A DNA stretch of 11,755 nt, from UHGV virus genome UHGV-0258651; one strand, 5' to 3'. The notes under the pieces are model-generated. The model ran no database searches, had not been told where the DNA came from, and worked only from the letters and a program-made list of their open reading frames with translations. Positions 1 through 11,535 of the stretch are shown piece by piece; position 1 is the first letter of the stretch, and each line of letters begins with the position of its first letter. The position numbers and the translations under genes were made by a program. The stretch is from a virus.

Positions 1-182
1 CCAGTGAGCATATTGCGCCGCTTCAGGATGCTGCAGATCTGGAAATTGCAACGGAGGAAGAAATCTCGTTGCTGGAAGCATGGAAAAAGTATCGGGTATT
101 GCTGAACCGTGTTGATACATCAAGTGCACCGGATATTGAGTGGCCTGCTTCCCCAGTGGAATCAAGGAGTAAACAAGCATAA
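1..182 (+). CDS. tail fiber assembly protein, C-terminal fragment (5' end lies outside window)
   Basis: Frame 3 is open from the window edge and translates to ...[47 protein letters not shown], with stop TAA at 180-182. The [21 protein letters not shown] tail matches the conserved C-terminus of lambda Tfa / P2 gpG-type proteins as I recall it; not searched. Confidence 0.7.
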
Positions 183-215
183 GGCTTTCATTTCAAACCA
201 TTGTAGTCCAGTTTT

Positions 216-1454
216 TTGTATAGTACCCTGCTCATTTCGAATGACATGAGTGATTTGGAATTTCAGGGTGCCATTATGAATGTTATTTCATCATTAAAAC
301 AGCTTAACAGACAGCGAAATATTAAAACAAAAAAGATAAAGACGAAGGCCAGACTGGCATTTCTAAAAATGCGATACAGAAGGAAAACATCATTACAGCC
401 GGATAGTTATAAAACAGTGTGCATTTTCATGCACATGCAGGCCATTGGTGACGGCATCGTTACCTCAGGGTTTATTAAACAACTTCAAGAATCCGGCATG
501 GTGGTATATGTGATAGCACCTCCAAGAGTATCATTCCTCTTTACTGATATTGTTGGCGTGGATGCCTTTATTTCTTACGAGAAAAATAAATTTAACGAAC
601 TAAAAGCAAAGATAAAAAAACTGAATGTAGATCTTGTTGTTGACTTCTCAAATTTTGATAACACAGCGATAACCAGATTGCAAACACTACATTTACTTAA
701 ACCTAAACACTCTATCTGTTTTAATCATCCTGCCGTAACTATTTTTGATACAAATATAACCGATAATCGTTCCATTCACTCATCTGAAAGAATGAAAAAA
801 GTTTTATCTTTACTAAAGATAAAAAATAATGATTACGCTGCAGCGCTTAATTTTGACAACAAAATATATGAACCAGCAAATATTGTTGCAAATGAATTCA
901 GGAAGAAAAACAAAAAATTAGTTATATTTAACCCTTATGGCTCTCAGAATAGCAGAACCTTGTCTGATGAACAGATAAACAAAGTACTAGCTTACCTTAA
1001 CAACCTTAAGGGATATCACACAATAGTTTTTAACATGGGAAAACAGATTAATCACAATGGATTGGATAATGTGTCTCTATCTCCATTTTCTGATGCAGGA
1101 TGTTCATTTGCATTGGTTCGCCATGCTGATTTTGTTATAACTGTAGATACTGCTATTGTACATTTAGCCAGTGCATTAAACATTAGACAATACTGTATAT
1201 ATAATAACAGAATGCATGAAGGAAAATTCGAAAATAATATAGTGTGGGGGCCAAACAGCAAATTAGCGACTCAACTCACCACATCCGAACATCTAAGGTC
1301 TGAAGGGGGCGACGATATGCATAAATTCGACATAATGCTTTTAATTAATGCTATCAAACAAGATTTGACAAACGATATACCGAATTACCACTCGGATTTA
1401 GGTTGTAAAAATAGCTCCAGAAACCCAGAATTAGAAAGTAGCAAATCTTTATAA
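216..1454 (+). CDS. glycosyltransferase family 9 (heptosyltransferase-like) protein, AT-rich moron; true start uncertain
   Basis: 412-aa ORF from the track. It has an N-proximal KTVCIFMHMQAIGDGIVTSGFIKQL segment and a C-terminal VITVDTAIVHLASALNIRQYCIY segment, resembling the GT9 (WaaC/WaaF-type) signatures. Strongly AT-rich compared with the neighbouring tail genes. The track start at 216 is a TTG; in-frame ATGs at 246, 276 and 369 are alternative starts, and no convincing SD precedes any of them. Confidence 0.55.
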   Translation: MYSTLLISNDMSDLEFQGAIMNVISSLKQLNRQRNIKTKKIKTKARLAFLKMRYRRKTSLQPDSYKTVCIFMHMQAIGDGIVTSGFIKQLQESGMVVYVIAPPRVSFLFTDIVGVDAFISYEKNKFNELKAKIKKLNVDLVVDFSNFDNTAITRLQTLHLLKPKHSICFNHPAVTIFDTNITDNRSIHSSERMKKVLSLLKIKNNDYAAALNFDNKIYEPANIVANEFRKKNKKLVIFNPYGSQNSRTLSDEQINKVLAYLNNLKGYHTIVFNMGKQINHNGLDNVSLSPFSDAGCSFALVRHADFVITVDTAIVHLASALNIRQYCIYNNRMHEGKFENNIVWGPNSKLATQLTTSEHLRSEGGDDMHKFDIMLLINAIKQDLTNDIPNYHSDLGCKNSSRNPELESSKSL

Positions 1455-1507
1455 CGTAGAAACCTCAACTGTTTTATCAGGACCTACGATATATTATATA
1501 ACAACAA

Positions 1508-1541
1508 GCCGCCCATTACCCAATATGAGGGTATTGGCGGC
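1508..1541. other. imperfect stem-loop between convergent GT9-like gene and gpU
   Basis: gccgcccattaccc / aatatga / gggtattggcggc forms a roughly 13-bp stem with one bulge. It lies between the stop of the + gene (1454) and the stop of the - gene (1551). No clean T-run on either side, so its role as a terminator is uncertain. Confidence 0.3.
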
Positions 1542-1550
1542 AATATAAAA

Positions 1551-2045
1551 TCAGAACAGCCCTTTAACTGAACTGGCCGCGCTGTTAAGAGATGATGTCA
1601 CCTTATCTTTGAAGCCGGACAACATATCGCTGAACGATGAGGATTGCAGGCGCTCCCGCAAATCCTCATCACAGCGTTCAAGAGTCAGTGAAAATTCTAT
1701 CTTTTTCGCCTTACCGTAGCGATCAAACTCGGAACGGGTCGTATTCGTTTCAGTCAGCACATACATGCCGTAAATCTGCCCGACACCATCAATCAGAGGC
1801 CAGGGGCGTCCTGTATACGCCTGCGTGGTCAGCAGCGACAGGGACACTTCGCCACCTGTAATTTCAGGATAAAGCACACCAGAAAGAACGATGCGATCAT
1901 CACCTGCACCGATATACTGCCAGCTTGCTGAACGGTTAACGCGTTCATTTTTCACATGCCGCCAGCTTTTGTTTTGCTGTAACTGTTGATGCGGCAATGT
2001 ACGCAGCTCAAAAACAAACATGCCATAGATCATCATCATGGCCAT
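1551..2045 (-). CDS. U: phage tail protein gpU (P2 gpU family)
   Basis: 164-aa ORF; MMMIYGMFVFELRTLPHQ...WRH...YPEITGGEVSL...WPLIDGVGQIYG pattern fits the P2 gpU family, and it sits immediately downstream of the tape measure gene. The GGAG SD is 8 nt upstream of the third ATG (2039), so the true start is probably 2039 or 2036. Confidence 0.8.
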   Translation of the reverse strand: MAMMMIYGMFVFELRTLPHQQLQQNKSWRHVKNERVNRSASWQYIGAGDDRIVLSGVLYPEITGGEVSLSLLTTQAYTGRPWPLIDGVGQIYGMYVLTETNTTRSEFDRYGKAKKIEFSLTLERCDEDLRERLQSSSFSDMLSGFKDKVTSSLNSAASSVKGLF

Positions 2046-2051
2046 GACTCC

Positions 2052-4895
2052 TCAATCTTTATCGTAAAAACTGCCACGTCCGGCACGGGCGCGCCGTTCC
2101 ATCTCTGCCCTGACCATTTCGCCGACCAGTTTCGCCAGTTCGCGGGGATTCTGTGTAACAACGTTATGCAGATGAACATGAATTTCACCACCAAATCCGG
2201 AGGCAACAGACTCCCGGTTACGGGAAGTTACAGGAACTGATGCCACTGGAGATCGTATAGCCTCCGCCACCGGGCGGGAGCTGGCCGCAACAACAGGGAC
2301 CAGCGCCGGAGGCAGCGGAGCCGGGACCACGGGTGTGATATTAATTGCGGGGGCAGGCTTACTGACCTGCGCAATCTTCCGCTCCTGCCACTCCCCACGA
2401 ACAGCAAGTGCTCGGGGCAGGTTTTTAAAGACAATATCGCCGGGGCCAATGCGTTTTTTCGTCTCCTCAACCAGCTTACCTGTGTTATCAGCAATTTTGC
2501 TGAGTCTGCGCAGCGTACCGGTATTGCTGTCTGTGAGCGGTTTATTGTCTTTGGGGTTATCACCTCCGGTGCCATTGCCATTTTCCACAGGCTTCGGCGG
2601 ATTGATTTTCGCCAGGTCCCCCTGAAGCAAGGCAACCTTGTCCTGAAGAATGGCCGCACGCTGTGCGTCTTCGATTTTCTTGCGCGCCCTTTCCGCTTCA
2701 TCCGGAAGCACACCAAGCTTTTCAAGTATCCACGCCAGCGTATCCAGCAACATTTTTGCAGGTGTCAGAACAAGTTGTAACGCACCGCCAAGAACGTTAC
2801 CGAATATCTCGCCAGCACTGGTACATTTATCCAGAGTTTCCTTGCTGGACTCCATCGGTGACAGCAGCGATTTAAACCAGTTAAACACCTGGCTGATCCC
2901 ACTCCCGATTGCGTCAAAAACAGGACCAAACCGTTCAAAGGTTTCGCGCAACGGGGTCAGCCTTTCCATAATCCCGCTGAACACCCCGGCAAAAAATGCC
3001 CTGATGGGATCCCAGTATTTCCAGATAAGAACGGCAGCTCCGGCAAGCGCAGCCACGATAAGACCAACCGGACTGAACAGCGCCCCGATAGCGCCTCCCA
3101 GTAAAGAAACGGAACCCGTCACCATTCCCCATAGTGCTGGCAGAACCCTGACAGCATTCATTGATCCGGTCAGGAGGGAAAAACCAAGACGCAGTTTTGC
3201 CAGCGGGCCAGCAAGCACACCAATAGCCAGCGACAACGAGCCAACCGTTGCAGTCATTGCCAGCAGTGCACCGCCTGCAATCAGTAGCTGGCGCGTCAGT
3301 GCGGGATGGGCCTGCGCCAGCGCCGTCACCTTTGATACCACACGCGTGAGCCACTGCGTGACAGAACGCAGCGGACCGTCAATCAGATCTGCAATGCGGA
3401 TGCGCAACCCTTCCCATGCACTGCCGAGTGATTTCAGATCGCCGTCAAGGTTGTTGGCCATAACCTTTGCTGTGCGTTCAGCCTCACCGCGTGCGCCTTC
3501 AAGTTCTTTTCTCAGTTTAGGTAAGGAACCGTCACCCGCTGCATCAACGAGCGCCATAAACGATGTGAAAGCCTCTTCTCCGGCAATGTCCTTAAAGAAC
3601 GATACCCGGTCAACTTCCCCGTATTTGCGGGTGGCTTTATAAAGGTCGGCCAGCACATTCTCCATCGGGCGCATTTTGCCGTTCGCGTCAGAGACTGCCA
3701 CACCAAGCTCTTTCAGCGCCTCTGCTGCCGCCTTTGGCGGTGATGCCAGACGAGCCAGGCTGGCACGCATTGCCGTCCCGGCATCACTTCCCCTGATACC
3801 CATATTCGCCAGCACGCCCGCCATCGCTGCGGCCTGCTCCAGCGATATTCCCAGCTTGCCCGCCACCGGACCTGCATATTTCATGGTTTCGCCCAGTGCG
3901 CGAAGGTCAGTGTTGGTACGGGTAAACGCTGCGGTGAGCGTGTCACCGACCCGGTCCATCTGGTCGGCAGAAAGGCCGAACTGCGTCAGGATGTTTGAGC
4001 CAATATCCGCCGTCTCGCCGAGATCCATACCGCCAGCCGTTGCCATGCTCAGCACACCGGGAAGCGCAGCCTGAATGGCCTGTGGTGTGAAGCCAGCCAT
4101 TGCAAGAAATGCCTGCCCACTGGCGGCATCGCCTGCGGCGAACTGCGTTTCAGAGCCAAGTTTTAACGCCTGCTCACGCAGCGCCTTAAACTGCGGGCTG
4201 TTTTTGTCGATTCGCGTCAGTGCCTGAACGCGGGACATCTCTTTCCCGAACCCGATCGCAGGCTGCAAAAAACGCCCGGCAGCATAGCCGCCAGCCGCTG
4301 CCGCACCAATTGCCAGCGCACCACCTGTTTTCAGTTTTCCTGCTGTTTCCTGCGCGCGCGAATACCGCTCACGCGCCCGCGTTACACGCGCAAGCGCCTG
4401 CCGTTCGCGTTCAAGCTGGTTGTTGTACTGTTCGGTGCGTCTGATGGCCTGCTGGATGGTGTTATCGCTGCCTGTCAGGGAAATGCCGTGGCGTTTCAGC
4501 TCTCCGCCAAGTTCCCGCATTTTCTGAATTTCCCGTGTGCGCGATTCATTCAGGCGTTCAAGCCGGGTGCTTAACTGCTGCATCAGCTTTTGTTGTTTTT
4601 CGCTGAGCACTGTACCCGTGCGTTGTAACTGATTAAGGGCGTTAAGCTGGCGTCGTGCTTTCACGATGCCCGCATCCGCTTTACTGACAGCGTCACGGGC
4701 GCGCTCAAATGAACGCGCCTGACGCTCGAGATTTTTGATCGCCCCCTGCGTTCGCTGGATGGAGTCACCAAACTGCCCCATCAGGCGGCGGGCGTTTTCG
4801 GCAGGCCGGGTCAGCCTGTCAACGGCGCTGAAAGCGACCCGGATATCAAGAGTCTTCATTGTCTGCATTCCCGCTGCGAAGTGCCGCCCGCTCAC
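2052..4895 (-). CDS. T: tail tape measure protein (P2 gpT-like)
   Basis: 947-aa ORF, coiled-coil/Ala-Gly-rich with central hydrophobic segments (GGALAIGAAAAGGYAAG...), located between E/E' and U as in P2. The track start at 4895 is GTG; in-frame ATGs at 4868 and 4859 are more likely starts. The E' extension overlaps this start. Confidence 0.85.
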   Translation of the reverse strand: MSGRHFAAGMQTMKTLDIRVAFSAVDRLTRPAENARRLMGQFGDSIQRTQGAIKNLERQARSFERARDAVSKADAGIVKARRQLNALNQLQRTGTVLSEKQQKLMQQLSTRLERLNESRTREIQKMRELGGELKRHGISLTGSDNTIQQAIRRTEQYNNQLERERQALARVTRARERYSRAQETAGKLKTGGALAIGAAAAGGYAAGRFLQPAIGFGKEMSRVQALTRIDKNSPQFKALREQALKLGSETQFAAGDAASGQAFLAMAGFTPQAIQAALPGVLSMATAGGMDLGETADIGSNILTQFGLSADQMDRVGDTLTAAFTRTNTDLRALGETMKYAGPVAGKLGISLEQAAAMAGVLANMGIRGSDAGTAMRASLARLASPPKAAAEALKELGVAVSDANGKMRPMENVLADLYKATRKYGEVDRVSFFKDIAGEEAFTSFMALVDAAGDGSLPKLRKELEGARGEAERTAKVMANNLDGDLKSLGSAWEGLRIRIADLIDGPLRSVTQWLTRVVSKVTALAQAHPALTRQLLIAGGALLAMTATVGSLSLAIGVLAGPLAKLRLGFSLLTGSMNAVRVLPALWGMVTGSVSLLGGAIGALFSPVGLIVAALAGAAVLIWKYWDPIRAFFAGVFSGIMERLTPLRETFERFGPVFDAIGSGISQVFNWFKSLLSPMESSKETLDKCTSAGEIFGNVLGGALQLVLTPAKMLLDTLAWILEKLGVLPDEAERARKKIEDAQRAAILQDKVALLQGDLAKINPPKPVENGNGTGGDNPKDNKPLTDSNTGTLRRLSKIADNTGKLVEETKKRIGPGDIVFKNLPRALAVRGEWQERKIAQVSKPAPAINITPVVPAPLPPALVPVVAASSRPVAEAIRSPVASVPVTSRNRESVASGFGGEIHVHLHNVVTQNPRELAKLVGEMVRAEMERRARAGRGSFYDKD

Positions 4896-5375
4896 GCCAG
4901 CTAACCACTTCGCCGGGCGTCATCATGAAGATTTCGGCGGGCGACCAGTTAAAAATGGCGGCAATATCCGCCACAAAGTCTTCTATGTGCTCAAAGCACA
5001 CAACCGTGATCAGGCTTCCGTCGCCTGTTCGTTCTTCCCGCCAGAGTCCGCACCGCTCAAAAAATTTACGGCAACCACACATAACTGAATAAAGTCACGG
5101 GATGCCATTTTTTTGATCGTCACTTCATCCAGTCGCGGTGATGTCACGCGTGACAGCAGCGTAAACATGGATTCCGCTTTCAAATTCAGCACATCAGACA
5201 GCGACAAATCTCGCAGAGATCCAGCCTGCTCAATAGCTCCGGTGATCTCCACATACGTGATTTTTTCGCCGCCTCGCTCAATTGGTTGGGTAAGTTTTAC
5301 GCCACGCTCACTGGTTTCTTTCACAGTGTCAGTAACTACCGTGTTTTCGGTATCGATGTTTTTCGTCTCTTTCAT
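4846..5375 (-). CDS. tail assembly chaperone E+E' (programmed -1 frameshift fusion product)
   Basis: E frame (5375..5010) and the overlapping -1 frame ORF (5082..4846) are joined at slippery heptamer T_TTT_TTG (minus strand, 5064..5058), which is in the correct phase of the E frame. After the shift the reading continues ERCGLWREERTGDG... to a stop at 4846. Same arrangement as P2 E/E' and lambda G/GT. Confidence 0.75.
5010..5375 (-). CDS. E: tail assembly chaperone gpE (unshifted product)
   Basis: 121-aa ORF directly downstream of FII on the minus strand, with AAGGAG SD 7 nt upstream of ATG at 5375. Contains the slippery site near its 3' end. Confidence 0.8.
   Translation of the reverse strand: MKETKNIDTENTVVTDTVKETSERGVKLTQPIERGGEKITYVEITGAIEQAGSLRDLSLSDVLNLKAESMFTLLSRVTSPRLDEVTIKKMASRDFIQLCVVAVNFLSGADSGGKNEQATEA
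5058..5064 (-). other. -1 ribosomal frameshift slippery heptamer TTTTTTG
   Basis: Plus strand 5058-5064 is caaaaaa, which is T TTT TTG on the minus strand. Zero-frame codons TTT and TTG were verified by stepping codons back from the E stop codon at 5012..5010. Confidence 0.75.
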
Positions 5376-5429
5376 CAGGAAACTCCTTTCAGTCAGAGGC
5401 GACGCACTGCGCCGCCTGCATATTACTTA

Positions 5430-5942
5430 TCAGCCAAGCCCGAGCGCGGAACGGATGCGATCGGGCACAATGTCCTTGCCGTCCTTCCGGTAAATGAAGT
5501 TCAGCAGGTCAATCTCCCACAACGGGCGATCGTTAACACTCAGCTTGTAGTAGGTGTTTTTAATGGCGTAAGTGTGTGATGTGGCTTCGCCCTGTTTGGC
5601 TTCCCCCATATCAATTTCCGTCACACGTCCGCGCATTTCGACTTCATACAGGTCGCTTTCTGCATCGGTGTAGTATTCACCCGCAAAACGCAGCAGCGTG
5701 CCGTCAATCGTGCCGCCATACTTAAGGAACAGCTCACGAACTGCGCCCCCCATGACAAAGCTCGCATCAAGCGCGGAGTCGTCCAGACCGAGATCAATAC
5801 TTACCGCTCCCATCATGCCACCACCCCGGTAGCTGTCGGTTTTGCGCGTCAGCTTAGGCAGAGTGACGGACGTCACCTTACCCACTTCGTTTTCACCATC
5901 CACAAACAGCGTAAAAAAGCGAAGATGTTTTGGTACAGCCAT
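5430..5942 (-). CDS. FII: tail tube protein (P2 gpFII-like)
   Basis: 170-aa ORF (P2 FII is about 172 aa) immediately downstream of the sheath gene. Its start ATG overlaps the FI stop (TGATG at 5944..5940), indicating translational coupling; GGGAGG SD upstream. Confidence 0.9.
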   Translation of the reverse strand: MAVPKHLRFFTLFVDGENEVGKVTSVTLPKLTRKTDSYRGGGMMGAVSIDLGLDDSALDASFVMGGAVRELFLKYGGTIDGTLLRFAGEYYTDAESDLYEVEMRGRVTEIDMGEAKQGEATSHTYAIKNTYYKLSVNDRPLWEIDLLNFIYRKDGKDIVPDRIRSALGLG

Positions 5943-7126
5943 CAGGCACCTCCCAGCACCGCAAATGCGGGACCAAAGAATTCATCAGTAAACGACTGGT
6001 AAAGCTCCATGTCTTCCAGCGGGGGAACAGGCGTATATTTGTAGCGAATACGCACGCGCCCCTGACGTAAATTCGTGGTGCCGTTATCCACCACGTCATA
6101 CCAGCACGACGCCCCAATCAGTTTCCCGGCAGTAACCAGTGAATCCAGTTTTGCCCTGATAGCACTGATAACATCCTTCACGTTCGCAGGCGTCAGTGGA
6201 CTGTCGATGGTTTCAAACTGCGCTTCCGCAATTGAATCAGCCAGCACCTGTGCGGTTCGGGTATACACCTCAAAGATGTAGGCGTTCGTTTCCGGTGTGC
6301 GGTTGCCCCAGAAGCGGAACCCGTTGCGACGAATAATGGTCGTGATTTCTTTGTTGTTGAGGCTGTTGGCATCACTGTCTTCGGCCTGCAACGACCAGAA
6401 CACATGCCTGGACATCCCCAGCACATTTTTAACCGGAACGTTGGACAGCGATTTGTGCCAGCCCTGCTCATGGTCAATGTACGCACGAAGGCCGCACGCA
6501 TAGGCAGGCGCGGGGAACGTTTCGTTTTTGCCACTTTTCGGGTTGTAGGCGATGAAGTCCGGCCATAAGAGCATCACCTCACGTTCGTTGAATTTCTGGC
6601 GGTAGGTAATTGCCTCAGCCATCGTGTTACAGTCATGACATGAGGCATACACAAACGCGCGCAGTTTACCCGCAATCACGCACAGGGATTTTGTCACCGC
6701 CTCCGTGTCCAGCTCCGGCGCGGCCAGAATACGCGGACGGTATCCGATGCTTTCATCCTGCTCTGCAACAAGCAGCGCATACATCCCCGTATAGCTGCCG
6801 TCATCCTCAGAACCACCGATAACCAGTTGATCCTGCGTCTTACCGCCTTCTTCTTTGTGTTCAGCCACGCGAACGACGATCACTTTTGTGCTCACCTGGT
6901 CTGCGATAGCCTTAAGCGCACGATAAAGCGTCCCCGTAGTCCCGCATTTTCCCAGCACGTCATTGACGCGGGTCAGCAGTGTGGGCTTGTTCAGCGGGAA
7001 CAGCTCCGCATCCGCATCATCCGCCGTTGCCACGATACCGATAACGCTGGAATCAACATCATTAATCGCTGTTACCAGGTCGGTACTTTCCGTGACACGG
7101 GCACCATGAAAACGAGTTTCACTCAT
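5942..7126 (-). CDS. FI: contractile tail sheath protein (P2 gpFI-like)
   Basis: 394-aa ORF (P2 FI is about 396 aa), sheath-like sequence, AAGGGG SD about 8 nt upstream of ATG at 7126. Followed by tube, chaperone and tape measure genes in canonical order. Confidence 0.9.
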   Translation of the reverse strand: MSETRFHGARVTESTDLVTAINDVDSSVIGIVATADDADAELFPLNKPTLLTRVNDVLGKCGTTGTLYRALKAIADQVSTKVIVVRVAEHKEEGGKTQDQLVIGGSEDDGSYTGMYALLVAEQDESIGYRPRILAAPELDTEAVTKSLCVIAGKLRAFVYASCHDCNTMAEAITYRQKFNEREVMLLWPDFIAYNPKSGKNETFPAPAYACGLRAYIDHEQGWHKSLSNVPVKNVLGMSRHVFWSLQAEDSDANSLNNKEITTIIRRNGFRFWGNRTPETNAYIFEVYTRTAQVLADSIAEAQFETIDSPLTPANVKDVISAIRAKLDSLVTAGKLIGASCWYDVVDNGTTNLRQGRVRIRYKYTPVPPLEDMELYQSFTDEFFGPAFAVLGGA

Positions 7127-7282
7127 AGCTTCAGCCCCTTGTATCCGTTAAATGATTCGGCAACAATCATCACCCACCACGCGCGTAATCTCACCCCTGC
7201 GCCGTTCTCCCGCCACGGCGACAACAAAAAGCAGTAACCCACTCCGCACGCACATGCGACCATGCCGCACAGGGAGGGAAAG

Positions 7283-8392
7283 ATGACCAACACCACCATG
7301 CAATTGCTCAGTCAGGGCACAGACCCCGTGAAAATGCCGGATTTTGATATTCTCGCGGAGGGGGAAACGCTGTCCGGCGTGGCAGAGCGCCTGATGAGTC
7401 TGTCACTGACCGACAACCGGGGATTTGAAGCGGACCAGCTCACCATCACGCTGGATGATGCGGATGGTCAGTTGCAGCTACCGCCACGGGGCGCGCGCCT
7501 GACGGTTCTCATTGGCTGGAAAGGCGAACCGCTGACAGAAAAAGGCACTTACATTGTTGATGAAATCGCTCACGAAGGACCGCCGGACAGGCTGACGGTT
7601 TCAGCCAGAAGCGCAGATTTTCGGGATGAATTTAACGTTAAACGTGAGGTGTCCTGGCATGATGTGACCGTTGAGCGAGTGGTATCCGCCATCGCTCATC
7701 GGTACGGTCTGAAACCGCAAATCAGCGAAATGCTGATGGACATCGAAATCGACCACGCCGACCAGACCGAAGAAAGTGACATGTCCTTCCTTACGCGCAT
7801 GGCGGAAATGCTGGGCGCAATCACCACGGTAAAAAGCGGCAATCTGTTATTCATCATGCCAGGTGGTGGCGTGAACGCACAGGGCCAGCCGTTGCCCTCG
7901 TTCGCCATTACACGCAGCAGCGGCGATCGCCATCAGTTCCGCATTGCTGACCGCGAGGCGTATACGGGGGTACGCGCCTACTGGCTTGATCTTAATTACG
8001 GGAAAAAGAAAAAAGTCAGCGTGAAACGCCGCAAACCGCCAAAACCCAAAAAGGAGAAAAGCAGCAGCCGTGAAGGTGATTATATGGAAGGCGCGGAAGG
8101 CAATGTGTTTGTGTTACGCAAGACTTATCAGAACGAGCAGGCAGCAAGACGCGCAGCGGCGGCAAAGTGGCAGCAGCTACAACGCGGAGCCGCATCATTC
8201 TCCATCACGCTGGCGCGTGGACGTGCAGAACTCTACCCCGAAATGCATGGCACGGTAACAGGATTTAAAAGCGAGATTGATAATCAGGACTGGATCATTG
8301 CAAAAGCCGAGCACACCATTGATAACAGCGGCTTTACCACGCAGCTTGAGCTTGAGGCAAAAATCCCGGAATGGATAGCGGAAACAGAGTGA
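7283..8392 (+). CDS. D: tail protein gpD (P2 late control gene D family)
   Basis: The ORF track starts at 7262, but a strong SD (GGGAGGG, 7272-7278) precedes the in-frame ATG at 7283 (MTNTTMQLL...). Product of about 370 aa with gpD-like sequence (LTITLDDADGQL..., C-terminal ...FTTQLELEAKIPEWI), and ogr follows directly as in P2. Confidence 0.8.
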   Translation: MTNTTMQLLSQGTDPVKMPDFDILAEGETLSGVAERLMSLSLTDNRGFEADQLTITLDDADGQLQLPPRGARLTVLIGWKGEPLTEKGTYIVDEIAHEGPPDRLTVSARSADFRDEFNVKREVSWHDVTVERVVSAIAHRYGLKPQISEMLMDIEIDHADQTEESDMSFLTRMAEMLGAITTVKSGNLLFIMPGGGVNAQGQPLPSFAITRSSGDRHQFRIADREAYTGVRAYWLDLNYGKKKKVSVKRRKPPKPKKEKSSSREGDYMEGAEGNVFVLRKTYQNEQAARRAAAAKWQQLQRGAASFSITLARGRAELYPEMHGTVTGFKSEIDNQDWIIAKAEHTIDNSGFTTQLELEAKIPEWIAETE

Positions 8393-8434
8393 GCAACTTA
8401 GAATAGCGGCAGCACCACGTTAAGGGAGGTCGCT

Positions 8435-8695
8435 ATGTTCCGTTGTCCGCTTTGTGGCGCATCTGCCCGTATCCGCACCAGTCGTCCGGAAAATGATTCA
8501 AACACTGTGCGACAAAAGTATTACCAGTGTAACAATCTGGAATGCGGCGTATGCTTCTCAACACTGGAAGCTTTCCATAAATTCACATCAAAACACGCCT
8601 CCGGCGTTCACTCTTCAGAAGGTATCCCGTGGCATGATCTGCCAGCTTCACACAGGGGAAACAATCAGATGAGTTTGCCTTTATCTCAGAATTAA
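8435..8695 (+). CDS. ogr: Ogr/Delta-family zinc-finger late transcription activator
   Basis: 86-aa ORF starting MFRCPLCGASARIRTSR...YYQCNNLECGVCF, a C-x2-C...C-x4-C zinc finger closely matching P2 Ogr (MFHCPLCQHAAHARTSR...). AAGGGAGG SD upstream; positioned immediately after D. Confidence 0.85.
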   Translation: MFRCPLCGASARIRTSRPENDSNTVRQKYYQCNNLECGVCFSTLEAFHKFTSKHASGVHSSEGIPWHDLPASHRGNNQMSLPLSQN

Positions 8696-8886
8696 CAGGC
8701 AGAATTGCCGGAGTAACAAAAAAGCGATAGATTACGCGCGGGTGCCTTTCGGCTGATGGTCGGAGGGAATACCCGAAGGCCAGATGTGGAAAGGCCCCGG
8801 AAAACATTTCTGTTTAACCGAGGCCCTAACATATCTACCTTAAGCAAGTGATAGGTTAGCGCCTCTCCAACAAAGGAGCAAGCGCT

Positions 8887-9027
8887 ATGTCGCAAAAATC
8901 GCTTACAGCCATCACATTCTGCGTGACGGTAATCCTCATCATCTGGATGCTGCACGGTTCGCTGTGCGAAATACGGATGAGCTTCTGGGGAGCGGAGTTT
9001 GCGGCGTTCTTACAGTGTAAGCAGTAA
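8887..9027 (+). CDS. Hok/Gef-family type I toxin (small membrane peptide)
   Basis: 46-aa ORF absent from the ORF track (below its size cutoff): MSQKSLTAITFCVTVILIIWMLHGSLCEIRMSFWGAEFAAFLQCKQ. It has a single hydrophobic helix followed by SLCEIR...AAFL.CK, matching HokA-type toxins (recalled HokA: ...FTWMIRDSLCELHIKQESYELAAFLACKLKE). AGGAG SD 8 nt upstream of the ATG. Confidence 0.7.
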   Translation: MSQKSLTAITFCVTVILIIWMLHGSLCEIRMSFWGAEFAAFLQCKQ

Positions 9028-9053
9028 GGAAACCGCGACGGGGAAGGCAACTT

Positions 9054-9072
9054 CCCCGTCAATCGGTTGCCA
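9054..9072. repeat. direct repeat copy A (CCCCGTCAATCGGTTGCCA), within about 45 bp of imperfect similarity
   Basis: 19-nt perfect match to 11221-11239. Flanking sequence is also similar (GAAGG.AAC.. upstream, CGAGGTCG downstream). Copy A is preceded by a 7-bp stem with GCAA tetraloop (9040-9057). Confidence 0.9.
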
Positions 9073-9116
9073 GGCGAGGTCGAAAAGGCACCCTATTCTC
9101 GCAGTCATGGACAAAC

Positions 9117-9151
9117 AAACCCGCAGCGTAAAAACTGCGGGTTTTCTTTTT
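9117..9151. terminator. rho-independent terminator, likely bidirectional
   Basis: aaa-CCCGCAG-cgtaaaaa-CTGCGGG-ttttcttttt: a 7-bp GC-rich stem with an A-run before and a T-run after, about 90 nt downstream of the hok-like stop. Confidence 0.6.
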
Positions 9152-9421: not shown

Positions 9422-9440
9422 AAACGTCTGTTTGGTTATA

Positions 9441-9485
9441 AACTTCACACTAATAATTTCTAAATGAAATTATTAGTGTGAAGTT
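9441..9485. promoter_or_regulatory. perfect palindrome (20-bp arms, 5-bp spacer), candidate operator or 5'-UTR structure of the ATPase gene
   Basis: AACTTCACACTAATAATTTC-taaat-GAAATTATTAGTGTGAAGTT; the arms are exact reverse complements. It ends 33 nt upstream of ATG 9519. The palindrome is certain; the regulatory role is inferred. Confidence 0.5.
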
Positions 9486-9518
9486 GATGTTTATTGTGAT
9501 TATAACTAAGGAATTAAA

Positions 9519-10988
9519 ATGAAATTATCTCCAGCAGAATTGAAGTTAGAAAGGGGTAAGGTTCAAGATAATAAATTCAATCAATATGTTAAACGTATCA
9601 CATTAAAAAATGTCAGAGGGTTTGATGAGGAAATTGTGGAGTTTAAAACACCAGTTACAGCTCTTATCGGGACTAATGGTGGAGGGAAGTCGACTATATT
9701 AGGTGCTGTAGCTCTCGCTTATAAAAATGTTAAGCCAAGCAAGTTTTTCCCTAAATCATTTTATGGGGATGATTCAATGAGTGATTGGGAAATTGGATTC
9801 GAATTGACTGACAAGCCTATTTCAAAAGATAAAAATATTAACAGGACTGCAAAATTTAAACAGATGAAATGGCGCAGAGATAATTTCCCAGAGCGAAATG
9901 TTGTATATGTAGAAATACAAAGAACTGTTCCTGCAGGCGAACTAACTAAGTTTAATAAATTTTTATCTGGCGATGCTAAACAATTTGAAGAAAAAAATCT
10001 CAACCCTGAGACAATAAAATATTGCTCTGCCGTTTTAGATAAAAAGATAGAAGATTACAGATGTATAATAAATAAGCACGATCCATCTTCAAGAATGTTT
10101 GTAGGTAAGGCAATTAATGGTTCTGGTTATTCTCAGTTCCATTTTGGTGCAGGTGAAGCATCAATAATAGATACTATTGATAGAATAGAGACTGCTGCTG
10201 ATAATTCTCTTGTTTTAATTGAAGAAATTGAAAATGGACTGCATCCTGTTGCAGTGCGGTTGTTTGTTAACTATTTGACAAATGTAGCAAAGAGGAAAAA
10301 GCTGCAAATAATATTTACAACACATTCGCAGGATGCAGTAAACGAGCTAGAGCCAGAAGCTGTTTGGGCTTCTATTAACAAAAAAGTATGGAATGGCAAA
10401 CTAAGTATTGAAAGTTTACGCGCTATAACGGGGCAGAAGATAAATTCGAAAGTTATATATGTTGAAGATTCTTTTGCAAAAGAGTGGGTTGAAAATGCGA
10501 TGGATCGATATATTCCAGAACTAGCCTCAACAATAAAAGTCTACACGGCAGGTGGTTACCCCAGCGTGGTTAAAGTAAGTCAATATCATAATGAGAACCC
10601 TACTATAAATTATCCATCAATCGCATTAGTTGATGGGGATATTAAAGGTAGACCCGGAACTAAAGATCTGCCTGATAATGCAATGTTCATCGGGGATGAT
10701 TATCCTGACGCTACGGTTTTTCATTATATTGCAAATAACATAGAAGAAAATGCCTCAGTTTTGAGGCAAAGATGTTTGTTAACAAGATTTGACGCTGAAA
10801 AGATTAAATCGGAAGTTGAGAGTGTGATGCATTCTGCATGTGATCACCATGTTTATTTTACTAGATTAAGTGATAAATTAGATTTTGCCTCAGAACTATT
10901 CATTCGGGCTGGTATGATAGATTTATTTAATGAGAAAAATCCAGAATTTTGGTCCCCAATTATGGACTTCATTAAAAAAGGTCTATAG
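9519..10988 (+). CDS. ABC-type (SMC/RecF/OLD-like) ATPase fused to a Toprim-like domain; candidate OLD/PARIS-like defence nuclease
   Basis: 489-aa ORF with AAGGA SD 6 nt upstream. Walker A GTNGGGKST (aa 51-59), Walker B/D-loop LVLIEEIENGLHP, H-loop IFTTHS. The C-terminal half has VIYVEDSF and IALVDGDIKG, acidic motifs typical of a Toprim fold. AT-rich, with its own upstream palindrome and downstream terminator. Confidence 0.6.
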   Translation: MKLSPAELKLERGKVQDNKFNQYVKRITLKNVRGFDEEIVEFKTPVTALIGTNGGGKSTILGAVALAYKNVKPSKFFPKSFYGDDSMSDWEIGFELTDKPISKDKNINRTAKFKQMKWRRDNFPERNVVYVEIQRTVPAGELTKFNKFLSGDAKQFEEKNLNPETIKYCSAVLDKKIEDYRCIINKHDPSSRMFVGKAINGSGYSQFHFGAGEASIIDTIDRIETAADNSLVLIEEIENGLHPVAVRLFVNYLTNVAKRKKLQIIFTTHSQDAVNELEPEAVWASINKKVWNGKLSIESLRAITGQKINSKVIYVEDSFAKEWVENAMDRYIPELASTIKVYTAGGYPSVVKVSQYHNENPTINYPSIALVDGDIKGRPGTKDLPDNAMFIGDDYPDATVFHYIANNIEENASVLRQRCLLTRFDAEKIKSEVESVMHSACDHHVYFTRLSDKLDFASELFIRAGMIDLFNEKNPEFWSPIMDFIKKGL

Positions 10989-11148: not shown

Positions 11149-11535
11149 TTGTCGATCAGACATTCGCACTATTCAATATCTTTTAGGCTCCGCAATGAAA
11201 ACGCCCCCGAAGGAACAATCCCCCGTCAATCGGTTGCCAAAGGCCATTTAGGTAAATCGCCTTCGAGGTCGTTCGATGGCTGCATGACGTTCCCGGTTAT
11301 CCCGTCAAAGAAAATGCACTCGACCGGAAAACCAGAAGAACTAATGGCGGAGTTGCTCAGGACTGCGAATAGTGGCGGAACAGTCCTTGATCCTTTTATG
11401 GGGCCAGGGACAACGGGTGTGGCTGCACTGAAAGCAGGGCGAAAATTTATTGGTATAGAAACCAGTGATCATTATTTTGAGGTAGCAGCGCAGCGGCTTC
11501 GGGGGACTATTACCACAACCATTTCAGCTACATAA
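11149..11535 (+). pseudogene. DNA methyltransferase (beta-class N6A/N4C type) 3' fragment, 5'-truncated
   Basis: The C-terminal roughly 75 aa of the 128-aa ORF read HSTGKPEELMAELLRTANSGGTVLDPFMGPGTTGVAALKAGRKFIGIETSDHYFEVAAQRL, the conserved end (H-x-T-x-KP ... DPF.G.GTT, motif I) of PF01555-type methylases. The catalytic DPPY motif and the preceding roughly 180 aa expected upstream are absent; the upstream sequence is AT-rich and non-coding. Confidence 0.5.
11221..11239. repeat. direct repeat copy B (CCCCGTCAATCGGTTGCCA)
   Basis: 19-nt perfect match to 9054-9072. It sits at the 5' junction of the methyltransferase remnant. Confidence 0.9.

Follow-up and report, generated by a model that had tools for sequence, protein, structure and literature searches.

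Inversion of the FI-U tail gene block is the standard gene order of P88-group phages, with a predicted late activator box shared by FI and D

Genes and features of the window

The window analyzed here is the whole 11,755-nucleotide stretch of the virus genome UHGV-0258651. Gene identities and strands were assigned from a listing of open reading frames and a Pfam profile search of the window. At its left end lies the 3′ end of tfa, the equivalent of P2 G, on the plus strand (1–182). The gene is cut by the window edge and is not itself truncated; in matching Escherichia coli prophages tfa is annotated as a protein of 199 aa with the same end point. It is followed on the plus strand by a cargo gene encoding a GT9-like glycosyltransferase (277–1454; PF01075, 3.6e-06). 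The longest open reading frame would start this gene at 216, and RefSeq (PGAP) places the start at 277. Its GC content of 31–35% compares with 52–60% for the tail genes.

The next six reading frames all lie on the minus strand, and read leftward they begin with the tail sheath gene FI (5942–7126; PF04984, PF22671 and PF17482), the first gene of the leftward operon. Then come the tail tube gene FII (5430–5942; PF04985, 7.5e-47), the tail chaperone gene E (5010–5375, from the open reading frame listing), the E′ frame (4846–5082; PF06528), the tape measure gene T (2052–4895; PF10145, 2.6e-57) and finally U (1551–2045; PF06995, 5.5e-39). Homologous annotation in P88 and E. coli, where T has 2808 nt, puts the start of T at 4859. 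The sequence T TTT TTG (5064–5058) is found inside the E/E′ overlap and in the E reading frame, which is what a programmed −1 frameshift yielding E+E′ requires, and such a frameshift is predicted here; the P2 record annotates one in E+E′. The genes of the block are intact and full-length throughout 1551–7126.

To the right of FI there is a spacer of 156 bp (7127–7282), and then the plus-strand gene D (7283–8392; PF05954), encoding the baseplate hub or late control protein D. The ATG at 7283 is preceded by a ribosome-binding site of its own, GGGAGGG. The gene for an Ogr/Delta-type zinc-finger late activator, ogr, begins 42 nt 3′ of D on the same strand (8435–8695; PF04606, 5e-14). Further right, beyond hok, the window carries a gene for a HEC-04 ATPase and a truncated methyltransferase gene. 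The original prediction, that FI to U lie on the minus strand in canonical order and as a contiguous block while the end of tfa, D and ogr lie on the plus strand, is therefore borne out, as are the divergent FI|D spacer and the strong Shine-Dalgarno sequence of D.

Comparison with phage P2

Comparison with the annotated P2 record confirms that the FI-U block is inverted with respect to the P2 order. In P2 the genes G, FI, FII, E, T, U, D and ogr share one strand as had been stated, but fun(Z), which had been included with them, is on the opposite strand. The window resembles the P2 FETUD operon in its gene families, its internal order, the T TTT TTG sequence, the presence of an Ogr-family gene downstream of D and a predicted Ogr-type box upstream of FI. 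It differs in that FI-U is inverted relative to G, D and ogr, leaving D outside the FI operon. D is the last gene of this transcription unit in P2, whereas here D and FI are on different strands and point away from each other across the 156 bp. The proteins are only 33–48% identical to those of P2 (FI 46%, D 48%, Ogr 36%). The D protein is 99% identical to that of phage P884B11.

The arrangement in phages and prophages

Comparison of synteny with P2-like relatives, as the original prediction had proposed, revealed the same gene order in the P88 group. Positions 1548–9151 are collinear with phage P88 (genus Xuanwuvirus) with 97% nucleotide identity. This is 65% of the window, the remainder being cargo, and other parts of the prophage fall outside the window; the ICTV genus threshold is ~70% identity over the full length. 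Among others, the phages PhiR44_2, P884B11, Citrobacter Shae_phiSM and Chuche are also collinear over 1548–9151, with 95–97% identity, and the annotations of P88 and Chuche give the same strands. The window thus has the P88-like order tfa(+), U-T-E′-E-FII-FI(−), D-ogr(+), followed as in the P88 group by hok, though the HEC-04 ATPase and truncated methyltransferase genes to the right of hok set it apart from that group. Going rightward, the match to P88 sets in at 1548, where U has its stop codon. The interval 1455–1550, which had been put forward as one breakpoint of the inversion, is therefore not recognizable as such.

Related phages with this arrangement are intact. P88 is induced by mitomycin, forms plaques with a burst size of ~65 and has a contractile tail of 137 nm (PMC5285337), and Citrobacter phiSM is a functional phage whose receptor consists of glucose residues in the LPS core (PMC6456863). 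The Chuche record is that of a complete phage genome, with mud as its source. The same order is present in the Novemvirus phiT5282H, the Senquatrovirus SEN5, the Reipivirus ST16-OXA48phi5.4, the Reginaelenavirus 3LV2017 and Serratia phage KSP20. Counting Xuanwuvirus, five ICTV genera of Peduoviridae have it, in addition to KSP20. A single orientation is shown by the 13 phage records whose coverage is 80% or more.

Prophages give the same picture. Of 5426 complete E. coli genomes, 1379 match at all and 1301 have an uninterrupted FI|D junction; among the matches listed, the partial ones are IS30 insertions or truncated matches. The left part of the window (1–2100, comprising the end of tfa, the GT9-like gene, U and the start of T) is covered to at least 80% in 48 complete E. 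coli genomes. One full-looking E. coli prophage was found to have the same order. We also scanned one genome per species, scoring the identity of FI to that of the window and the orientation of D. D is divergent from FI in 42 prophage loci (plus two degraded) spanning ~20 genera of Enterobacterales, with FI identities of 55–98%. A further 32 loci with FI identities of 48–51% have the P2 order. Gene order therefore tracks FI identity with no exceptions, being divergent at 55% and above and P2-like at 51% and below. We conclude that this is the standard, long-fixed order of the P88 group, a large branch of the P2-related phages. It is not the novel architecture that had been suggested. Neither the papers about P88, phiSM, SEN4/5 and Serratia PP4/KSP20 nor a 2026 survey of P2-like defense hotspots mentions an inversion or a difference of orientation.

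An order that is standard in phages able to form functional tailed particles reflects neither misassembly nor decay, two explanations that had been offered. Misorientation of the 5.7-kb block by an assembler would have in its favor only that the order differs from that of P2. Both junctions turn up in independent phage genomes, P88 having been sequenced from phage DNA (PMC5285337), and the E. coli genomes contain the FI|D junction and the tfa-GT9-U region in the numbers given above. The probability of an artefact is negligible.

That the rearrangement is recent and peculiar to a prophage remnant in decay might be suspected from the truncated methyltransferase gene, from the IS30 insertions in D or truncations in some O157 strains, and from the close relative MB06101, which is clearly degraded and lacks the genes from head completion to tail fiber. 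However, the open reading frames of the block are full-length and 97% identical to those of the functional P88, the order is common to structurally complete prophages and to phages of five genera, and it follows the FI phylogeny without exception. This origin is very improbable.

A programmed inversion by a Gin/Cin/Pin-type invertase was considered because P88 has an invertase gene nearby. There, this gene and an invertible tail-fiber segment adjoin U, with the invertase gene ending 35 bp from the U stop codon. Yet no inverted repeats flank the block. Our search gave chance-like pairs, and none pairs 1455–1550 with 7127–7282, in agreement with the earlier failure to see clear repeats at the junctions. 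The open reading frame listing and Pfam search revealed no invertase gene in the window, and phiT5282H and SEN5 have the same order without any invertase. Moreover the 13 phage records, 1301 of the 1379 matching E. coli genomes and the 42 loci of the species scan all have one and the same orientation. On the basis of this census and the lack of repeats we reject an invertase-mediated flip, which we regard as highly unlikely.

The spacer between FI and D

Ogr-dependent late promoters of the P2/186/P4 type require the Ogr protein and a contact with the RNA polymerase alpha subunit for their transcription. They have a dyad TGT-N12-ACA centered ~55 nt upstream of the start, with a −10 element and no −35 element. 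A strict search of the window for TGT-N12-ACA gave no sites in 7127–7282. When one half-site was relaxed the spacer contained a single match, a predicted Ogr-type box at 7206–7223 (center 7214.5). Its plus-strand sequence is TCT-N12-ACA and its minus-strand sequence TGT-N12-AGA. It is one base removed from the P2 consensus, having TCT in place of TGT. The box stood out only after this relaxation and comparison with the spacer between P and O and with other genera. A P88-type prophage has the motif GTTCT-N12-ACAACAAAAG again in its P|O spacer. Within a phage, the P|O and FI|D spacers vary together as to whether the half-site is TCT or TGT. Exactly one box is present in 32 of 36 distinct related spacers from ~20 genera; the other four have no single box with the search pattern. 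The center of the box lies 80.5–95.5 nt from the FI ATG in 31 of the 32, the outlier being at 185.5 nt.

Elements resembling −10 hexamers are found on both sides of the box at an offset of 44–49 nt from its center, in each of six lineages compared. On the minus strand the hexamer GATGAT (7166–7171) is the putative −10 element of a promoter for FI (pF), with a predicted start at ~7159. The hexamer at this offset fits nAnnAT in 31 of the 32 related spacers. On the plus strand GACCAT (7258–7263) is the corresponding candidate for a D-ogr promoter (pD), with a predicted start at ~7270. A hexamer at the pD position is present in most of the 32 single-box spacers; in the six lineages five fit nAnnAT, and phiT5282H has GATCCT. 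With a start at ~7270 the leader ahead of the D ATG would be just ~13 nt long, which counts against pD. A scan for the sigma-70 consensus gave nothing useful at either junction, with 17 promoter-like hits where 15.2 were expected. The hexamer TAGAAT (8399–8404) lies upstream of ogr, which may have a promoter of its own with this as its −10 element.

The predicted geometry is that of the divergent late promoters pP and pO of P2. The P2 record has one activator site (3057–3087) for both pP (start 3016) and pO (start 3127). One central dyad box lies between divergent late genes, with −10-like hexamers 44–49 nt to each side. The P2 starts were mapped 56 and 55 nt from the center of the site; those in the FI|D spacer are predicted at ~56 nt. 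P2 annotates such a geometry only at P|O, whereas in the window it is also predicted at FI|D. We found no mapped transcription start in P88-type phages, and our promoter model rests therefore on conservation of sequence and the analogy with P2.

The original prediction held that the inversion uncouples D from the tail operon. D is indeed physically separated from FI-U, but uncoupled is probably too strong a term because the conservation suggests that D and ogr are driven from the late activator box of FI. D-ogr are thus probably under late control from the same box as FI-U.

Inversion in place or import

The FI-U genes might have been imported in reverse from another contractile-tail phage as a replacement module, rather than inverted in place. 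Seven prophages of canonical order, in Erwinia, Pantoea, Mixta, Winslowiella and an uncultured gammaproteobacterial MAG, have D proteins 65–68% identical to that of the window but FI proteins only ~50% identical, a discordance across the junction that such an import could explain. Against this, the FI, FII, E, T and U proteins are about as far from P2 as are the head, baseplate and D proteins. Divergence from P2 is similar in all these modules, mostly 31–63% identity, with S (25%) and H (73% over part of its length) as outliers, and this evenness argues against a recent import of FI-U. In addition, the identities of FI, U and D fall together within the clade, and the pF-type box and −10 element travel with FI as a simple inversion predicts. 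We therefore consider import unlikely, and retain inversion in place as the preferred explanation.

The gap between tfa and U

Everything between the tfa stop codon (182) and U is a variable cargo slot. Its content varies among close relatives. The GT9-like gene is absent from P88, phiT5282H and SEN5; in P88 the slot is filled by the invertible fiber segment and invertase gene, and Chuche has a different glycosyltransferase in the cargo position. The GT9-like gene has no match in PADLOC. Two variable loci have been described in enterobacterial P2-like phages (PMC9122126), and the variable cargo loci of P2-like phages also include the old/tin locus. The slot is like the fun(Z) locus of P2, between G and FI, in having a low-GC accessory gene directly after the tail fiber assembly gene. 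It is unlike it in being bounded by the 3′ end of U and not by the FI promoter, as a result of the inversion.

Between the convergent stop codons of the GT9-like gene and U, folding predicts a GC-rich hairpin (1508–1541), a candidate bidirectional terminator, followed on the minus strand by TTGTTGTT. The 96-nt stretch around it gives fold z-scores of −3.0 and −3.7. A simple terminator scan did not flag the hairpin because its stem has a bulge. In phiT5282H and SEN5 the tfa|U gap contains a conserved structured element that might have been a relic of the junction; the window lacks it.

Discussion

Taken together, the data are best explained if the window comes from a P88-like (Xuanwuvirus-type) prophage of the P2 family and forms its right arm, with the gene order normal for that lineage, combining an ancient inversion, promoters that share a box, and a cargo slot. 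We put the probability of this reading at about 90%. A large clade of Enterobacterales peduoviruses would owe its order to a single ancient inversion, relative to P2, of the FI-FII-E/E′-T-U block in their ancestor, and the inverted order would have stayed fixed ever since in phages whose contractile tails work. The event would have brought the FI promoter and its dyad-symmetric Ogr box beside D. The central box is proposed to serve two divergent late promoters in the manner of P2 pP and pO, with pF reading leftward through FI, FII, E/E′, T and U, and pD rightward through D and then ogr. If the shared box does serve pD, D would stay in the late regulon despite having left the operon. At the other end the inversion would have created the convergent tfa|U gap that acts as the cargo slot, here holding the GT9-like gene and then the hairpin.

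By extension, the late regulon of the P88 clade may run largely from two bidirectional Ogr boxes, at P|O and FI|D, with a pair of divergent operons driven from each. We lean slightly towards this view. In an E. coli P88-type prophage the stretch from O to tfa gave no third box, though in SEN5 the interval between S and V contains a candidate. On the two-box reading the ancient inversion would have been tolerated because a dyad-symmetric Ogr box works in both directions. D would have gained a late promoter once placed beside the box, and ogr would have gained positive feedback through pD. The conserved box with its symmetrical −10 elements provides a testable picture of how an operon can be split by an inversion and still remain in its regulon.

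The convergent tfa|U gap offers a defined place in which to seek cargo genes in the P88 clade. About one quarter of complete E. coli genomes carry the P88-type order. P2 is not a universal template for prophages of the P2 family, and departures from its gene order should therefore be compared with the right subgroup before they are called rearrangements.

Strand organization of the tail genes

The genes of the window were placed using a six-frame ORF list and a Pfam scan. The minus strand carries sheath FI (5942-7126), tube FII (5430-5942), E (5010-5375), the E' frame (4846-5082), tape measure T (2052-4895, with the homologous annotated start at 4859) and gpU (1551-2045), and a T TTT TTG heptamer lies in the E frame at the E/E' overlap. 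On the plus strand are the 3' end of tfa (to 182, read from the sequence), a low-GC GT9-like gene (216/277-1454), gpD (7283-8392) and ogr (8435-8695). In the annotated P2 record G, FI, FII, E/E', T, U, D and ogr all lie on one strand, with the pF promoter transcribing FI to D. The FI-U block is therefore inverted relative to P2, as the original prediction proposed from this same reference order. FI and D diverge across a 156 bp spacer (7127-7282), and GGGAGGG 5' of the D ATG gives D a ribosome-binding site of its own, as noted before. It had also been noted that the junctions lack clear inverted repeats, and in our search of the window no repeat pair joins the left and right junction regions. 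Within the tfa coding sequence, positions 1-124 (+) match Rfam IS009 above the gathering score (133.8 bits), probably reflecting conservation of the tfa gene and not a separate RNA.

The same order in functional phages

Using megablast against phage genomes, window 1548-9151 gives one collinear match to Escherichia phage P88 (Xuanwuvirus, Peduoviridae) at 97% identity, and PhiR44_2, P884B11, Citrobacter phage Shae_phiSM, Chuche and others match at 95-97%. In the annotated P88 and Chuche genomes U, T, E', E, FII and FI lie on the strand opposite H/tfa and D/ogr, as in the window. P88 is induced by mitomycin C, forms plaques with a burst size of ~65, and has a contractile tail of ~137 nm by EM (PMC5285337). 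phiSM is released spontaneously, forms plaques and lysogenizes E. coli K-12 (PMC6456863). Chuche is a complete phage genome deposit with mud as its source. Since intact related phages have this order, the suggestion that it represents a prophage remnant, an assembly artifact or a novel architecture does not hold. An assembly error is ruled out by the many independent records, and a scramble specific to a remnant by the intact functional relatives. A blastn search with the FI-D junction (window 6527-7882), together with annotated records, revealed divergent FI and D in Novemvirus phiT5282H, Senquatrovirus SEN4/5, Reipivirus ST16-OXA48phi5.4 and Reginaelenavirus 3LV2017, and also in a Serratia KSP20 fragment (2009). 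The arrangement is thus already public, both in characterized phages and in annotated records dating back at least to the KSP20 entry. It passes without comment in the papers on P88, phiSM, SEN4/5, Serratia PP4/KSP20 and P2-like defense hotspots, within an incomplete coverage of the comparative literature.

Distribution and origin of the inversion

Among phages searched by tblastn, those with FI no more than 49% identical have FI and D on the same strand, ~5 kb apart; they include P2, 186, PSP3, Klebsiella ST437-OXA245phi4.1, 500465-1, Shewanella M16-3, ENT4 and Vibrio MAR. We built an FI alignment and scanned one genome per bacterial species. The scan gave 80 loci, and in every one we determined the positions of FI, U, D and ogr. 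The two groups split cleanly. At 55-98% FI identity, 42 loci (plus 2 degraded) have D divergent immediately upstream of FI and ogr after D, while all 32 loci at 48-51% have the P2 order. The former come from ~20 genera: Salmonella, Citrobacter, Enterobacter, Kosakonia, Symbiopectobacterium, Mixta, Erwinia, Trabulsiella, Klebsiella, Raoultella, Serratia, Brenneria, Pantoea, Pectobacterium, Yokenella, Providencia, Morganella, Photorhabdus, Xenorhabdus and Dryocola. A contig of the scan labeled Vagococcus sp. (Firmicutes; L013, NZ_JBQPOM010000071.1) carries a P88-type prophage with FI 98% identical to that of the window, which suggests a contaminated or mislabeled assembly.

An uninterrupted FI-D junction (≥95% identity) is present in 1301 of 5426 complete E. 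coli genomes, and the partial matches among those listed are IS30 insertions or truncations, never the opposite orientation. In 48 E. coli genomes a match extends over ≥80% of window 1-2100, a segment running from the end of tfa through GT9 and U into T. One of these, STEC2018-607, has a structurally complete prophage with this order beside a tRNA-Leu gene. Its proteins are mostly 31-63% identical to those of P2 (S 25%; H 73% over part of its length). FI (46%), FII (44%), E and T (33% each), U (46%) and D (48%) do not stand apart from its head (34-47%) or baseplate (44-61%) genes. Given this divergence and the wide distribution, the rearrangement is old, fixed and lineage-defining. A switch driven by an invertase is rejected, because flanking repeats are lacking, no invertase gene is present in the window, phiT5282H or SEN5, and a single orientation is found among the phage records, E. 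coli genomes and P88-type loci surveyed.

Alternatively, FI-U might have been imported in reverse orientation. In seven prophages of P2 order (L056, L057, L068, L071, L080, L082 and L085, from Winslowiella, Mixta, Erwinia, Pantoea and an uncultured gammaproteobacterial MAG), D is 65-68% identical to that of the window, yet FI only ~50%. Their U is 52-59% identical, so the discordance lies between U and D and may be relevant to the origin of the inversion. This mismatch leaves import a slim chance, and we regard it as very improbable beside inversion in place.

A cargo slot between tfa and U

The left junction was proposed to be an inversion breakpoint at 1455-1550. It is instead the edge of a cargo slot, since the similarity to P88 begins at 1548, the U stop codon, and the content of the stretch from the end of tfa (182) to U differs among relatives. 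phiT5282H and SEN5 have only 150-200 nt of structured sequence with a GC hairpin, P88 has an invertible fiber segment and an invertase gene, Chuche a different glycosyltransferase, and ST16-OXA48phi5.4 a DUF262 pair; in the window and the 48 E. coli genomes the GT9-like gene occupies this stretch. The counterpart of the slot by position in P2 is the fun(Z) locus behind G, which belongs to the two loci described as variable among P2-like phages of enterobacteria (PMC9122126). The cargo-free gaps of phiT5282H (L005 744-897) and SEN5 (L006 6934-7136) share a conserved, strongly structured element, containing the near-palindrome AACGGTGCTGCAGCACGGT and the GC hairpin AGCGGGC-N4-GCCCGCT, which is absent from the window. 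In the window the convergent stop codons of GT9 and U are separated by a hairpin (1508-1541) that may terminate transcription of both genes. The GT9-like gene (277-1454, +) is of the heptosyltransferase family, with a GC content of 31-35% and no match in PADLOC. As the receptor of the related phiSM is the glucose of the LPS core (PMC6456863), a role in LPS core modification and superinfection exclusion is plausible.

Further features lie to the right of ogr. A hok/mok-type toxin region (8719-9070) shares 85% identity with part of many Stx-converting phages; P88-type prophages carry it under the annotation Hok/Gef. The strongest hairpin of the window, a 23-nt inverted repeat (9438-9488; 96% complementary, 5-nt loop), is directly upstream of an ATPase gene (489 aa; 9519-10988, +) of low GC content (33-37%). 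This has Pfam domains AAA_15 and AAA_21, is labeled 'ATP-dependent nuclease' in E. coli genomes, and is a full-length match to the PADLOC candidate defense protein HEC-04 (E = 1.8e-203). P88 and Chuche lack it at this place. A type II DNA methyltransferase gene next in the window (11149-11535, +) is reduced to its C-terminal half, where Chuche has com and an intact methyltransferase gene, and it therefore appears that the HEC-04 cassette replaced the 5' part.

A predicted shared late promoter element

With D split from FI-U, its late expression needs an explanation. P2 has a single annotated 'activator binding site; pO, pP promoters' (3057-3087), and the P (3016) and O (3127) starts are 56 and 55 nt from its center. 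One box for the late activator Ogr can therefore serve two divergent promoters. A strict search for the consensus TGT-N12-ACA found no match in the FI-D spacer of the window. The sole relaxed match is TCTCCCGCCACGGCGACA (7206-7223), reading TGT-N12-AGA on the other strand, and its extended motif GTTCT-N12-ACAACAAAAG is also central in the P-O spacer of the P88-type E. coli prophage. −10-like hexamers occur at offset 44-49 from the box center (7214.5) on both sides, GATGAT (7171..7166) towards FI and GACCAT (7258-7263) towards D; the mapped pO of P2 has GAAACT at the identical offset. Starts near 7159 (−) and 7270 (+) are predicted from these positions, the latter leaving a leader of only ~13 nt before the D ATG.

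The layout of box and hexamers is kept in phiT5282H, SEN5, ST16-OXA48phi5.4, 3LV2017 and KSP20, while the remaining spacer has diverged (62% mean column identity). Exactly one box occurs in 32 of the 36 distinct P88-type spacers of the species scan. Its center is 80.5-95.5 nt from the FI ATG in 31 of the 32; the only match in one Providencia spacer is at 185.5. On either side the hexamers at offset 44-49 conform to nAnnAT: A in positions 2 and 5 and T in position 6 each occur in 31/32 spacers towards FI, and in 31/32, 24/32 and 29/32 respectively towards D. Moreover the half-site variant covaries within a phage, with TCT...ACA in both the P-O and FI-D spacers of the E. coli P88-type prophage and phiT5282H, and TGT...ACA in both spacers of SEN5. 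We consider it probable (roughly 0.6-0.65), from this conservation and the analogy with P2, that a single central Ogr box activates pF (FI to U) as well as a promoter for D-ogr. In addition ogr may have a −10 of its own, with TAGAAT (8399-8404) as candidate.

Other features of the relatives were observed. A search of the interval from O to tfa in the E. coli P88-type prophage (L004 9194-20182) gave no Ogr-type box; S and V there are only 11 nt apart. SEN5, in contrast, has TGT-N12-ACA between S and V (L006 1264-1281), so members of the clade may vary in how many late promoters they have. The M-L spacer of the same E. coli prophage (L004 12106-12206), inside the would-be O late operon, has a long GC-rich hairpin followed by TTTTTT that may be an attenuator. 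In many E. coli genomes the RefSeq annotation cuts D down to an 801-nt 'VgrG/Pvc8 family' gene with an overlapping pseudogene (L003 27602-28402, L004 27594-28394). By tblastn the first 120 residues of D align from the upstream ATG at 98% identity, and the short form is probably a start-site annotation problem.

The rearrangement is real yet ordinary for its lineage, and its only mildly new element is the inferred bidirectional late activator box shared by FI and D. Were that box to work both ways, as we propose, the inversion would have been tolerable.
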